NCBI GenBank assembly: GCA_963662545.2
Contig: CAXXLL010000003.1
Coordinates: 2,910,395 to 2,974,394 of the forward strand
Direction: 5' to 3'
Length of the DNA: 64,000 nucleotides
Source: Gammaproteobacteria bacterium
GTDB taxonomy: Bacteria; Pseudomonadota; Gammaproteobacteria; Ga0077536
The position numbers and the translations under genes were made by a program. Of this stretch, positions 10,351 to 15,026 are shown piece by piece; positions within the stretch are counted from its first letter, which is position 1; each line of letters opens with the position of its first letter. The notes under the pieces are model-generated. The model had not been told where the DNA came from and did not search any database. It saw only the letters and a program-made list of their open reading frames with translations.

Positions 10351-11162
10351 GGCATTGTCAGACTAACTTGATCGGACCAGTAGAGCCAACAATCGAGGTC
10401 TCTCAGGCTGCAAGTTGACGCCACTCGGCCAAAGCGGCGGAGCGATTGAGTTTGAAGTTCTCGCGATTGTAAAGATGACGTTCCTGGTTGAAATGATTGT
10501 GGATGGAGGCGTGGACGGCAGCAAACTTCTGGAGAGTCTTGATGTCTCTGAACCTAGCCATCGCTCCTTGCTGCTGCTCGTCGGCGGAACGGTTGGTGTG
10601 AGTTTTCGGCTCGATTGTTGCGCCACTGACCGCAAATCTGACGATCCTCGACCCCAATGACTTTCATCGTAGCACCGTAGGAACGTCGTCGGTCGGCCAC
10701 GATTGTTCTTGGCCCGCCGTAGCGCTTCATTGCACGCTTCAGGAACTTCAGTGCAGCCCTGCGATCCCGACGCTTTGTGGCGAAGACTTCAAGCACCTCA
10801 CCTTCGTGATCGACGGCGCGCCAGAGGTAATGCATCTCTCCGTTGATCCGTACGAACACCTCATCAAGATGCCAACGCCAGTTCGACCAGTCGCGCCGGT
10901 CTACGCGCCGCCTTCTGATCTCGCCAGCGAACACCGGAGCAAACCGATCCCACCAGTACCGCAGCGTCTCGTGGCAGATGTCGATGCCACGTTCGAACAG
11001 AATGTCTTCAACTTGGCGCAACGACAGCGGATAGCGGATGTACAACATCACCGCGAGGCGAATGCCCTCGGGAGAACTGTTGAAATAACGGAAGGGATTC
11101 CACATCGCTTGAGGCTACGGAACTCCCCTTCCCGGCTCAAGCCGATTTACTCTGATAATGCC
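10351..11162 (-). mobile_element. IS6 element, frameshifted transposase
   Basis: Both IRs; ORF split at a short insertion near 10560-10580. Confidence 0.9.
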
Positions 11163-11845: not shown

Positions 11846-12649
11846 GACATTGTCAGAGTAAATGGGCTTGAGCTGAAAAGTAAGGCCTCGTAGCCTCTGG
11901 TGATGCACAATCCTTTCCGTTATTTCAACAGTTCGCCCGAAGTGATCCGCTTCGCGGTGATGTTGTATGTCCGATACCCTTTGTCGCTGAGACAGGTCGA
12001 AGATCTCCTGTTCGAGCGCGGCATCGAGATCTGCTATGAGACCGTGCGGTATGGGTGGAACCGCTTTGGTCCGCTGTTTGCCGGGAGATCCGGAAACACC
12101 GCGTTCATCATGGATCCTATTCGAACTGGCGCTGGCACCTTGATGAAGTGTTTGTCCGCATCAACGGCAAGACACATTACCTATGGCGTGCCGTTGACCA
12201 TGAAGGCGAAGTCCTTGAGGTTTTTGTGACGAAACGGCGGGACCGCAAGGCTGCGCTTGAGTTCCTGAAGCGCACGATGAAGCGTTATGGCCGGCCGGCT
12301 TCGATCGTCACGGATAGGCTACCGTCATATCGTGCTGCGATGAAGGTGCTCGGCAACGAAGGTTGCCAAGAGACCGGGCGTTGGCTGAACAACCGGGCAG
12401 AAAACTCACATCAGCCCTTTCGAAGGCGGGAAGGGGCAATGGCGCGCTTCAGAGACATCAAGACCCTACAGAAATTCGCCGCCGTCCATGCCTCGATCTA
12501 TAACCATTTCAACCACCAACGCCACCTCAACCGCCGCGCTATTTTCAAACAAGCCCGAGTCGCTGCCCTGGCTGAGTGGTGTCAACTTGCAGCTTAAAAG
12601 GCCTCGATTGCAGGTTCTACCGGTCCGACCCAGTTAGTCTGACAATGCC
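11846..12649 (+). mobile_element. IS6 element, frameshifted, variant left IR GACATTGTCAGA
   Basis: ORFs 11900-12229 and 12055-12597; right IR ends 12649. Confidence 0.9.
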
Positions 12650-13837
12650 CCATTGGGGCCGACAGATCACTGCTCTTGGCCATAGGTGCAAGCTGATCCA
12701 GCCGCTCTATGTCAAGCCATTTTCGAAGCGGCAGAAGAATGACAGTAACGATGCGGCTGCGATTATCGAGGCTGCACAGCGCCCCACCATGCGGTTCGTA
12801 GCGGTGAAGTCGGAGCAAGCGCAGGCGGATTCTATGCTGTTCCGCACTCGCGCGCTGCTTGTCCGGCAGCGTACGCAGTCGCTCAATTCACTTCGGGGCC
12901 AGCTTGCGGAATTCGGCGTGGTCGCGGCACGAGGTGTGGCGGGTGTCGCGGTGATGCGGATTGAGTTGGCAGAAGTGAAAGAGTCCTTCCTGAACAGGTC
13001 GTGTCTCTGGCCGAACTGCTGCTCGAGCAGGTTACCGCTCTCGGTGAGCAGATCGCCGGTCTTGAGAAGAAGATCCGTTCTCGGACTCGGGCATGCGAGG
13101 ACATGAAGCGGCTGATGACGGTCCCCGGTATCGGACCGGTCTGTGCGATGGCGGTGCATGCCTTTGCGCCGCCGATGGAGAGCTTTGGCTGCGGGCACGA
13201 CTTCGCGGCCTGGGTCGGGCTGACGCCACGGCCGCACTCGACCGCCGGCAAGCAACGGCTCGGCCGGATCACCAAGATGGGACAGCGCGACCTTCGTCAG
13301 TTGTTCGTCCTGGGCGCAACGTCGGTGCTCCGGCATAAGCGCAAGCGCGAGGAGCTGGAGGATCCCTGGTTGCGGAGGATGATCGCAGAAAAGCCGCCGA
13401 AGCTGGTCGCGGTCGCGCTAGCCAACAAGATGGCGCGCATCATCTGGGCGCTGTCGGTCAGTCAGGAAACCTACCGGGCGCCGGTCACCGCTGTTGCGGA
13501 ATAGCTGCCTGGCAGAGGAAGGACCTGTTTGGAATTGGAACACCGGGCTTCGCGAACACGCTCTTGAGAACGTGATGCGCGGACAACCCAGGTTGGTGCG
13601 GTAGGGACGAAAGACAACATAGGGGCAAAAGGTCAGAGAGACGGGGTCGGAAAAACCAGCGTTGCACGCTGGGCTGTCAAGCATACCGCTGAAGCGATTT
13701 GGATCCGATCCACGAACACCCTATGGGCCCGCGGCGCAGGCATGCCGCACTTGAGAGGCCGGACATACGACAGTACCTGACCGCATGTCACGAGTTGTTC
13801 AAATTCCTGCTTGCACTGCAGGGGGCGTCCACATACG
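12650..13837 (+). mobile_element. IS110-family (IS1111-type) element, 5'-truncated, transposase frameshifted (ends 13504)
   Basis: KRQKNDSNDAAAI, VPGIGPV, FAAWVGLTP..STAGKQRLGRITKMG, VALANKMARIIWA; ~330-bp 3' non-coding end finishing GCGTCCACATA-CG. Confidence 0.9.
13620..13790 (+). ncRNA. Putative IS1111 bridge/seekRNA (boundaries approximate)
   Basis: Stem GGGTCGGA / TCCGATCC encloses segments matching the insertion site; ACATACG at 13763-13769 matches the element end. Confidence 0.65.
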
Positions 13838-14214
13838 TGCAATGAAGCACTACGGTCGGCCAAGAATCACCGTGACGGACCGCCTACGTTCCTACGTTGC
13901 CGCGATGAAAGTCATTGGGGTCGAGGATCGTCAGCGTTGCGGTCAGTGGCTCAACAATAGAGCCGAAAATTCACACCCACCGTTCCGCCGACGAGAAGAC
14001 GCGATGGCCAGGTTCAGAGACATCAAGACCCTGCAGAAGTTTGCTGCCGCCCACGCCTCCATCCACAATCATTTCAACCAGGAACGTCATCTTTACAATC
14101 GCGAGAACTTCAAACTCAATCGCTCCGCCGCTTTGGCCGAGTGGCGTCAACTTGCAGCCTGAGAGATCTCGATTGTTGGTTCTACTGGTCAGATCAAGTT
14201 AGTCTGACAATGTC
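13838..14214 (+). mobile_element. 3' half of the IS6 interrupted by the IS1111 element
   Basis: Resumes ..AMKHYGRPR..EWRQLAA*; right IR variant TCTGACAATGTC. Confidence 0.9.
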
Positions 14215-14221
14215 TCGGGGA

Positions 14222-15026
14222 GGCATTGTCAGAGTAAATCGGCTTGAGCGGGGAAGGGGAGTTCCGTAGCCTCAAGCGATGCGAAATCCCTGCCGTTATT
14301 TCAACAGTTCTCCCGAGGTCATTCGCCTCGCGGTGATGTTGTATATCCGCTATCCGCTGTCGTTGCGCCAGGTCGAAGACATTCTGTTCGAACGTGGCAT
14401 CGACATTTGTTATGAGACGGTGCGGTACGGGTGGAACCGCTTTGGTCCCCTGTTTTCAGCCGAGGTCCGGAAACGCCGCATTCATCATGGATCCTATTCG
14501 AACTGGCGCTGGCATCTTGATGAGGTGTTCGTACGGATCAACGGCGAGATACGTTATCTATGGCGCGCTGTCGATCACGAAGGGGAGGTACTCGAAGTTT
14601 TTGCCACGAAACAGCGGGATCGCAAGGCTGCACTGAGGTTTCTGAAGCGTACGATGAAGCGCTACGGCCGGCCAAAGGTGATCGTGACGGACCGGCTCAA
14701 ATCATACCGAGCTGCGATGAATGTGATCGGCAATGCCGCCGCTCAGACTTGCGGTCAGTGGCTCAACAATAGAGCAGAAAACTCACACCAACCGTTCCGC
14801 CGACGGGAAGGAGCAATGGCCAGGTTCAGGGACATCAAGACCCTGCAGAAGTTTGCTGCCGCCCACGCCTCGATCCACAATCATTTCAATCAGGAACGTC
14901 ATCTTTATAACCGCGAGTACTTCAAACTCAATCGCTCCGCCGCTTTGGCCGAGTGGCGCCAGCTTGCAGCCTGAGCGTCTTCGATTGTTGGCTCTACTGC
15001 TCCGATCAAGTTAGTCTGACAATGCC
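14222..15026 (+). mobile_element. Complete IS6 element, transposase 14279-14974
   Basis: Both IRs; intact ORF. Confidence 0.95.

Follow-up and report, generated by a model that had tools for sequence, protein, structure and literature searches.

Target choice guided by RNA was demonstrated in 2024 for insertion sequences (IS) of the IS110 and IS1111 families (PMC11187229, PMC11208160). In the published work on these elements, the RNA binds the recombinase and pairs with both target and donor strands around a 2-nt core, and insertion proceeds from a circular form of the element without giving rise to a duplication. SeekRNAs of the IS1111 family were shown experimentally for ISEc11, ISKpn4, ISPst6 and ISPa11 (Siddiquee et al. 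2024, PMC11187229), and the bridge RNA of IS621 was described for the IS110 group (Durrant et al. 2024, PMC11208160). The subject of this analysis is an IS1111 remnant joined to the middle of an IS6-family transposase gene in a stretch of 64,000 nucleotides (further called the window) from the genome of a Gammaproteobacteria bacterium (GTDB lineage Ga0077536; assembly GCA_963662545.2, contig CAXXLL010000003.1, positions 2,910,395 to 2,974,394). A seekRNA/bridge-RNA-guided IS1111 element would in itself represent an already known mechanism. What appears to be new is the class of target, i.e., codons of the transposase gene of another IS, attacked at two sites of one gene, as well as a small natural series of retargeted guides carried on one scaffold.

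The locus seems to be organized like ISEc11, ISKpn4, ISPst6 and ISPa11, with a DEDD transposase some 340 aa long, subterminal repeats of 12 nt, extensions of 7 and 3 nt, and a non-coding region downstream of the transposase, in which the segment complementary to the top strand is located 5' of the one matching the bottom strand; close relatives that have been reprogrammed in nature are a common feature as well (PMC11187229). The difference lies in the targets, which in that work are a short linear site, attC and repetitive extragenic palindromic (REP) sequences (PMC11187229), whereas here it is a transposase coding sequence, with two IS6 sites. IS621 similarly possesses two guide pairs (target and donor) around a 2-nt core, uses partly matching off-target sites and has a natural target one base off the target encoded in its loop (PMC11208160). 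In contrast to the present element, with its RNA in the right end and a multiloop, IS621 carries its RNA in the left end, with donor nucleotides in a simple internal loop; donor nucleotides in a multiloop were described for many IS1111 orthologues (PMC11208160).

It is very probable that the remnant is a dead IS1111 copy which had been guided by RNA into the IS6 sequence CTGAAG-CG-TGCAATG and whose lineage lives on other insertion sequences. The segment 13660-13668 (or up to 13670) would pair with the top strand of the core and right target, and 13689-13696 with the bottom strand of the left target and core, while 13763-13769, the donor segment, corresponds to the right end and core of the element itself. 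These segments had been proposed in a first-pass annotation, made from the letters of the sequence, and all its coordinates and motifs proved exact, including ACATACG at 13763-13769 and the uninterrupted site on the minus strand at 10728-10742. The left guide CTGAAGCG agreed in 8/8 positions with the sister IS6 site (10735-10742). The right guide formed eight Watson-Crick pairs and one G.T wobble over nine positions; its complementarity had earlier been counted as a 10/11 match, which stands, except that the counted mismatch is this wobble. The right guide precedes the left one and the two overlap on AGCG. Both target matches occurred jointly in just 9 of 50,000 mononucleotide shuffles of the 331-nt non-coding region, when an exact 8-mer of left target plus core and a complementarity of 8/9 or better to core and right target were accepted anywhere.

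The assignment was evaluated in relatives from the plasmids L005 (Rhizobium) and L006 (Chelativorans) and from the metagenome-assembled genomes G081, G082 and G086, in which the RNA scaffold is conserved and the two guide slots vary. Scaffolds with 88-100% identity form a series with eight guide sets, of which seven occur in genome copies and one occurs in contigs of sequencing runs. The left-guide slot matched the element's own left flank in 8/8 positions in L005 (CGTGAGCG), L006 (CGAGATTG) and L081, and in 6/8 in L077, L079 and L078. The right-guide scores, given as Watson-Crick plus wobble pairs out of nine, were 7+2 for L005, 8+1 for L006, L078 and L109, 9+0 for L077 and L079, and 7+0 for L081. 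With wobble counted and the best offset taken, 9/9 was reached by 7 of 13 cognate pairs vs 2 of 148 non-cognate ones; below 9/9 this control is weak, a score of 7 being found in 71/148 non-cognate pairs. L007 (Rhizobium CB3171), with odd ends which do not match its own guides, was counted as a miss. In 12 of the 13 aligned relatives, the donor segment changed together with the right end (CATACG, CACACG, CACATG, TAGACG, CAGATG); the exception, L091b, had one mismatch. Because the same slots match each relative's own flanks and the donor segment follows the right end, the identification of the two target segments and ACATACG as predicted target and donor guides holds.

That the similarity of RNA and flanks reflects acquired target sequence or chance instead of guides is extremely improbable. 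It could draw on a left target deduced from a sister IS6, on an unremarkable single-sequence fold and on non-cognate right-guide scores of 7, which are common when wobble and the best offset are allowed. Against it speak the rarity of the joint match in shuffles, the fact that the same slots match different flanks in L005, L006, L077-L081, L078, L109 and L113, and an architecture equal to that shown experimentally for IS1111 seekRNAs (PMC11187229).

The two additional nucleotides of the 11-nt right segment pair with AG in the window, and in the G081 variant they are changed and pair with TG of the IS21 and IS1182 sites; in L078 one of the two pairs. The length of 11 nt may be real. A candidate guide for the left end reads CCCT at 13720-13723 of the window and in the second remnant of this genome (L002), vs CCAT in all 11 other aligned relatives (alignment A2). 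Either the lost left end differed, or this donor guide had already decayed in the common ancestor of both remnants.

To classify the insertion sites, copies with a readable junction and an identity of 82% or more to the reference were collected from four genomes, giving 10 distinct classifiable sites. Six of them were located in IS6, at two positions (A and B), and the other four in transposase genes of IS21, IS1182 and IS1380 (Table 1). Being half genes, most of the flank fragments scored under the curated NCBIfam cut-off. Loci L080 and L082 are duplicates of one event, the three IS21 insertions of G081 share identical 30-nt flanks and were counted as one site, and L093, whose left flank was unclassified, was kept outside the 10 sites. 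Site A lies between positions 115 and 120 of the 202-position NF033587 profile and site B near position 43; all site-A copies are oriented in sense and all site-B copies in antisense to IS6. The L002 piece joins the same IS6 position as the window copy. The IS1111 parts of the two are identical in 208 of 215 positions and the adjoining IS6 parts in 312 of 381, and the IS6 of L002 has no relative above 82.7% in the genome. Since the IS1111 parts are near-identical and the IS6 parts diverged, the two copies represent two insertions into two diverged IS6. For L079, the flanks rejoin to the empty site CAGATGCGCGCCGTG, which is present at G081:C1:255864. At the L080/L082 left junction, CTGAAG-TG-ATGGAG was observed, with TG in place of the expected core CG.

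The guides appeared to change together with the IS6 alleles. The difference between the guides of L109 (TATGAGACG) and L113 (TACGAGACG) mirrors the difference between their site-B targets, a CAT vs a CAC codon. At site A, the window's right guide specifies TGCAA(C)G and that of G082 specifies CGCAATG, and contigs of run X1 and of the RNA library X19 carry four substitutions (13661, 13663, 13666, 13670) which make the slot complementary to CG+CGCGATG. TGCAATG, CGCAATG and CGCGATG were all observed as site-A alleles of IS6. A tabulation of the flanks of homologues had been set beforehand as the test of the IS6 assignment; with the majority (6/10) in IS6 and guides co-varying with targets, the notion of IS6 as a recurrent target of the lineage is supported. 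The earlier view of the element as a parasite of IS6 stands to the extent that most sites are in IS6 and guides track its alleles, but the specialization is not exclusive and the copy is a relic.

Several observations weigh against this interpretation. One G.T wobble makes the window right guide an imperfect complement, and that of L002 has two wobbles and one mismatch (6+2 of 9). The left junctions of both copies in the genome are lost, so that the left target had to be taken from the sister IS6. The X19 contig, coming from an RNA library, is no proof of transcription. The five full-length G081 copies, nearest in sequence to the remnant, share its left guide, their right guide being directed at CGCCGTG, and occupy IS21 (three), IS1182 (one) and IS1380 (one), with two mismatches each. 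Four sites with one mismatch are empty in G081, all the occupied ones having two. Part of the enrichment in transposase genes could be due to harmless insertions having survived. The single-sequence fold was not better than that of shuffles (z = -1.12, 33 of 200 shuffles as good), and the lineage was found in four genomes only, neither in the other 80 genomes of the window's own order nor in the sample of its class.

In G081, a scan for the guide-predicted target gave 87 sites with up to two mismatches vs 58 in the reversed control, none of them perfect, and simple mismatch counting failed to predict site use. The right side of the G081 variant matched an IS21 and an IS1182 site in 11/11 positions. 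Half-match insertion was reported for IS621 (10.64898/2026.08.31.748434) and would explain the IS21, IS1182 and IS1380 sites.

These data bear on another possibility, namely that the guides are real and IS6 is not the target for which they evolved (e.g., a perfect CTGAAGCGTGCAACG existed in a former host), copies in transposase genes having merely survived purging. This is unlikely, even though the genome contains no perfect guide-predicted 15-mer, the nearest full-length relatives occupy IS21, IS1182 and IS1380, and half-match insertion is documented. The sole difference is a G.T wobble, and the natural IS621 target is also one base off the loop-encoded one (PMC11208160). Three independent site-A and three site-B junctions with IS6 were found in four genomes, the guide changes parallel the allelic changes of IS6 at both sites, and matches of 14-15/15 to IS6 are not predicted by survival bias alone.

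Under the preferred reading, in which RNA guided the element into IS6, recombination at the CG core would have placed it in the IS6 site, and a second, independent entry would have occurred into a diverged IS6 of the same genome. Later, the IS6 end at 12649 may have removed the first 270 bp, via insertion or IS6-mediated deletion; the DNA to the left of the truncating IS6 is not IS1111. A 1-bp deletion broke the reading frame, and the genome contains no cognate recombinase. The sister guide sets appear to aim at two conserved sites of the IS6 transposase gene and to follow IS6 alleles, half-matching IS21, IS1182 and IS1380 sites being used as well. The element would probably benefit from a landing site that is harmless, present in many copies and horizontally mobile, travelling with plasmids.

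A comparable habit is reportedly known from IS4321/IS5075, which are said to home to Tn21 ends, and from the IS1111-attC group, said to home to attC sites. In both cases IS1111-family elements sit on a conserved sequence of another mobile element, which offers a multi-copy mobile landing site. Their targets are non-coding recombination sites or ends, whereas here they are codons inside transposase genes, because of which the target element is inactivated through its gene.

Limiting the spread of IS6 had been suggested as another role, and the notion of a brake on IS6, acting for the host or for the element itself by knocking out transposase genes, would agree with the splitting of the transposase gene by every IS6 insertion. 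Such a role found no support and is very improbable: the genome contains two disrupted IS6 copies vs 19 uninterrupted pieces spanning the site, G082 retains at least 145 IS6 matches, and IS6 ends in turn truncate IS1111 copies (window 12649; L073). The IS6 and IS1111 families disrupt each other. It is possible that the lineage parasitises other IS with guides tuned to two IS6 motifs, mutating with the alleles and drifting to new IS hosts, and that IS6 ends cut it back. If true, such a retargeting contest between two transposon families would be natural, continuing and readable from guide sequences.

To our knowledge, natural guide targets and retargeting in nature have been little charted so far. 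The series of guide sets presented here, with targets readable from real junctions, covers the use of wobble, half-matching off-target sites and guide changes that follow alleles. With it, the target classes known so far, namely REP sequences, attC sites and transposon ends, would be joined by the transposase coding sequence of another IS. In practical terms, it provides a rule by which nested IS6/IS1111 debris can be annotated, and natural data on how far mismatches are tolerated, of use in bridge-recombinase engineering. Full-text searches of the literature gave no report of an IS1111 or IS110 element that targets IS6 or another transposase gene; such cases may be listed in the supplementary target tables of PMC11187229 and PMC11208160 or in a key survey of 2003.

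Table 1. Features of the IS1111 remnant, its putative guide RNA and its IS6 target in the window, and classified insertion sites of the lineage
Feature	Position in the window or number of sites	Strand or orientation	Description
IS1111-family (IS110 superfamily) remnant	12650..13837	+	Positions 271-1455 of the 1455-bp full-length relative (G081; loci L020/L079)
Transposase pseudogene	12651..13504	+	Without about the first 60 of 343 codons; frameshift at 12986
3' non-coding region	13505..13837	+	333 nt between the end of the stop codon (13504) and the element end
Right end	13821..13837	+	Subterminal inverted repeat GGGGGCGTCCAC (13821-13832), 3-nt extension ATA, core CG (13836-13837)
Predicted right target guide CGTTGCACGCT	13660..13670	+	Complementary to the top strand of core and right target (CG+TGCAATG) and 2 nt further
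Predicted left target guide CTGAAGCG	13689..13696	+	Equals left target plus core in top-strand sense; would pair with the bottom strand
Predicted donor guide segment	13761..13777	+	Holds ACATACG (13763-13769), equal to right-end extension plus core
Candidate donor guide, left end	13717..13727	+	Relatives ..CCAT.., complementary to left end ATGG; tentative assignment
Conserved seekRNA/bridge-RNA module	~13623..13837	+	Conserved across 13 aligned relatives
Outer helix	13631..13782	+	GGTCA (13631-13635) / TGACC (13778-13782); encloses target stem-loop and donor multiloop
Target-binding stem-loop	13642..13714	+	Helix CGGGGTCGGA (13642-13651) / TCCGATCCACG (13704-13714); inner CCAG (13656-13659) / TTGG (13699-13702)
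Target IS6, 3' part	13838..14208	+	From mid-transposase gene to right inverted repeat; NF033587 profile 120-201
Uninterrupted target CTGAAG-CG-TGCAATG (CTGAAGCGTGCAATG)	10728..10742	-	Inside the IS6 at 10357-11162
Truncating IS6-family element	11848..12649	+	Right inverted repeat ends ...TGACAATGCC and abuts the IS1111 remnant; transposase frame broken (open reading frames 11900-12229, 12055-12597)
IS6 site A (L-K-R-A-M codons)	3 sites	sense	Window, L002, L080/L082 in G082
IS6 site B (H-E-T-V-R codons)	3 sites	antisense	L097 in G081; L109, L113 in G086; IS6 by NF033587
IS21 transposase genes	2 sites		Three G081 copies at one site; L078 in G082
IS1182 transposase gene	1 site		L077
IS1380 transposase gene	1 site		L081

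The remnant was aligned with the 1455-bp relative over 1185 columns with 89.9% identity and one gap. The breakpoint of the 270-bp loss at its 5' end coincides with the end of the IS6 right inverted repeat at 12649, and the alignment revealed the 1-bp deletion at 12986 which throws the transposase frame out of register. On the window fragment, PF01548 (N-terminal DEDD/RuvC-like domain) matched only at profile positions 69-152 of 155 (39 bits), because the first ~60 codons are deleted, and the C-terminal domain PF02371 gave 77.7 bits. The 343-aa transposase of the G081 relative matched NF033542 ("IS110 family RNA-guided transposase") over positions 1-338 with 313.6 bits. The motif GLTPRPHSTAG lies within the C-terminal open reading frame 13001-13504 and corresponds to GL-P----S/T-G (TA variant allowed), which is typical of IS1111 transposases (PMC11187229). 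The string GCGTCCACATACG was read at the right end (13825-13837). The left end is gone from the window copy; in the full-length relative, the left subterminal repeat matches the right one in 12/12 positions and the extensions are CGATGGG on the left (core included) and ATA on the right. Subterminal inverted repeats of 11-13 bp with extensions of 7 bp on the left and 3 bp on the right define the IS1111 group (PMC11187229). On these features and the downstream non-coding region, the segment 12650-13837 is placed in the IS1111 family, as the first-pass annotation had proposed.

In view of the 270-bp 5' loss, the frameshift and the lack of a full copy or cognate transposase in the genome, the copy is judged a dead relic. 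No full-length copy was found in the genome, the sole other piece being the 215 bp of L002. As for other IS110-family transposases, the genome has two identical genes of 337 aa and two weaker matches; the product of the former is about 24% identical to the protein of the lineage. A ~90%-identical relative in run X1 keeps the extra G and has no frameshift (depth 140 of 150). Contigs of runs X1 and X3 with zero differences span 12623-12912, i.e., the left IS6/IS1111 junction, and may come from the source sample. Among the listed run contigs, none with zero differences bridges 13837/13838, uncovered stretches being uninformative.

The secondary structure of the RNA was analyzed in the alignment of 13 sequences. 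The consensus was written by hand because the RNAalifold consensus missed the donor-side helices. The proposed structure had 91.5% of cells paired vs at most 47% when slid along the alignment. The stem reported earlier, GGGTCGGA (13644-13651) with TCCGATCC (13704-13711), was confirmed, and three of the 10 pairs of the helix closing the target loop showed compensatory changes. In the outer helix, four of five pairs are invariant, the fifth is unpaired in 2/13 sequences and none co-vary; as their pairs are invariant and without covariation, this and the other helices are only predicted. In the helix 128-132/141-145, pairing reached only 63%, owing to a one-column shift of the alignment from group to group. 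A caveat had been raised that 13656-13672 itself forms a small hairpin. It is indeed present in the window copy and is not conserved in relatives, where column-wise scoring was blocked by the alignment shift. No Rfam family covered the RNA; the sole hit, to a eukaryotic long non-coding RNA family below threshold (E = 1.6), was treated as chance.

At the target, the join corresponds to position 449 of an 821-bp IS6 (BLAST), and the 13838-14208 part is 85% identical to the reference IS6 and 90.7% to the sister copy. The target codons L-K-R-A-M lie in the middle of the IS6-family transposase gene. Among 19 IS6 pieces spanning the site genome-wide, one had the exact 15-mer, two differed at one position, eight at two and eight at more. 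The claim made for the other IS6 copies of the window therefore extends to the whole genome. The site 10728-10742 is the sole one in 5.58 Mb with at most one mismatch to the guide-predicted target, and the 15-mer predicted from the window's guides has no perfect counterpart anywhere in the genome. The truncating IS6 (11848-12649) is 77% identical (BLAST) to the intact IS6 14200-15020, and NF033587 matched it at 11900-12226. All host genomes of the lineage are rich in IS6, which amounts to 27 BLAST pieces in the window's genome and to 36, at least 145 and 27 protein matches in G081, G082 and G086, respectively.

Searches for further relatives gave little. In the family of the window's genome, which makes up its whole order, no real copies were found in the other 80 genomes (81 including the window's genome), with just two 36-49-bp matches inside the transposase gene, and in the sample of the class none of 399 other genomes matched at E <= 1e-30, one genome not being scored. 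In the plasmid collection, the transposase region matched 403 records, none at 80% coverage, and the non-coding region 71 records, all 60-80% identical, with no close relative. A pattern scan of genome contigs gave 69 stretches, by estimate about the chance level for a 17-base pattern, with the scaffold in three. A scan of metagenome contigs revealed six loci, more distant relatives with other guides; on translation, none of their readable right flanks was IS6 or looked like a transposase gene. The more distant relative L006 is inserted in an IS630 transposase gene (NF033545).

A few additional observations were made on the relatives and on IS6. In G081 and G086, a group of ~76% identical copies (L090, L116, L122, L124, L128, L130 and L132) shares one common guide set. 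Their left flanks agreed with the left guide in 5-8 of 8 positions, the right flanks were at background level, and on translation the copies sit in ordinary genes, which looks like half-site insertion. At L091/L101 (G081:C4, ~1630372-1630790), an IS1111 relative is followed, immediately past its right end, by another complete seekRNA-like module that has a right end of its own. The two modules carry different guides (rows L091a and L091b of A2) and look like a tandem or a solo RNA module. In G082 (4.7 Mb), the IS1111 fragment L073 (~4690) is severed within the RNA module by an IS6 inverted repeat, like the window copy at 12649. Over ~26 kb of the window (3095-29230), BLAST gave eleven IS6 pieces with 77-100% identity to the 14200-15020 copy. 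This pile-up comprises several sequence types, with intact, truncated and abutting pieces. The Rhizobium plasmid copy L005 (NZ_CP149875.1) lies downstream of an annotated effector gene of the XopAG/AvrGf1 family, at a distance of a few hundred bases, and its target (CGTGAGCG/TCCGGTGAGCGG) contains a short direct repeat of GTGAGCG.

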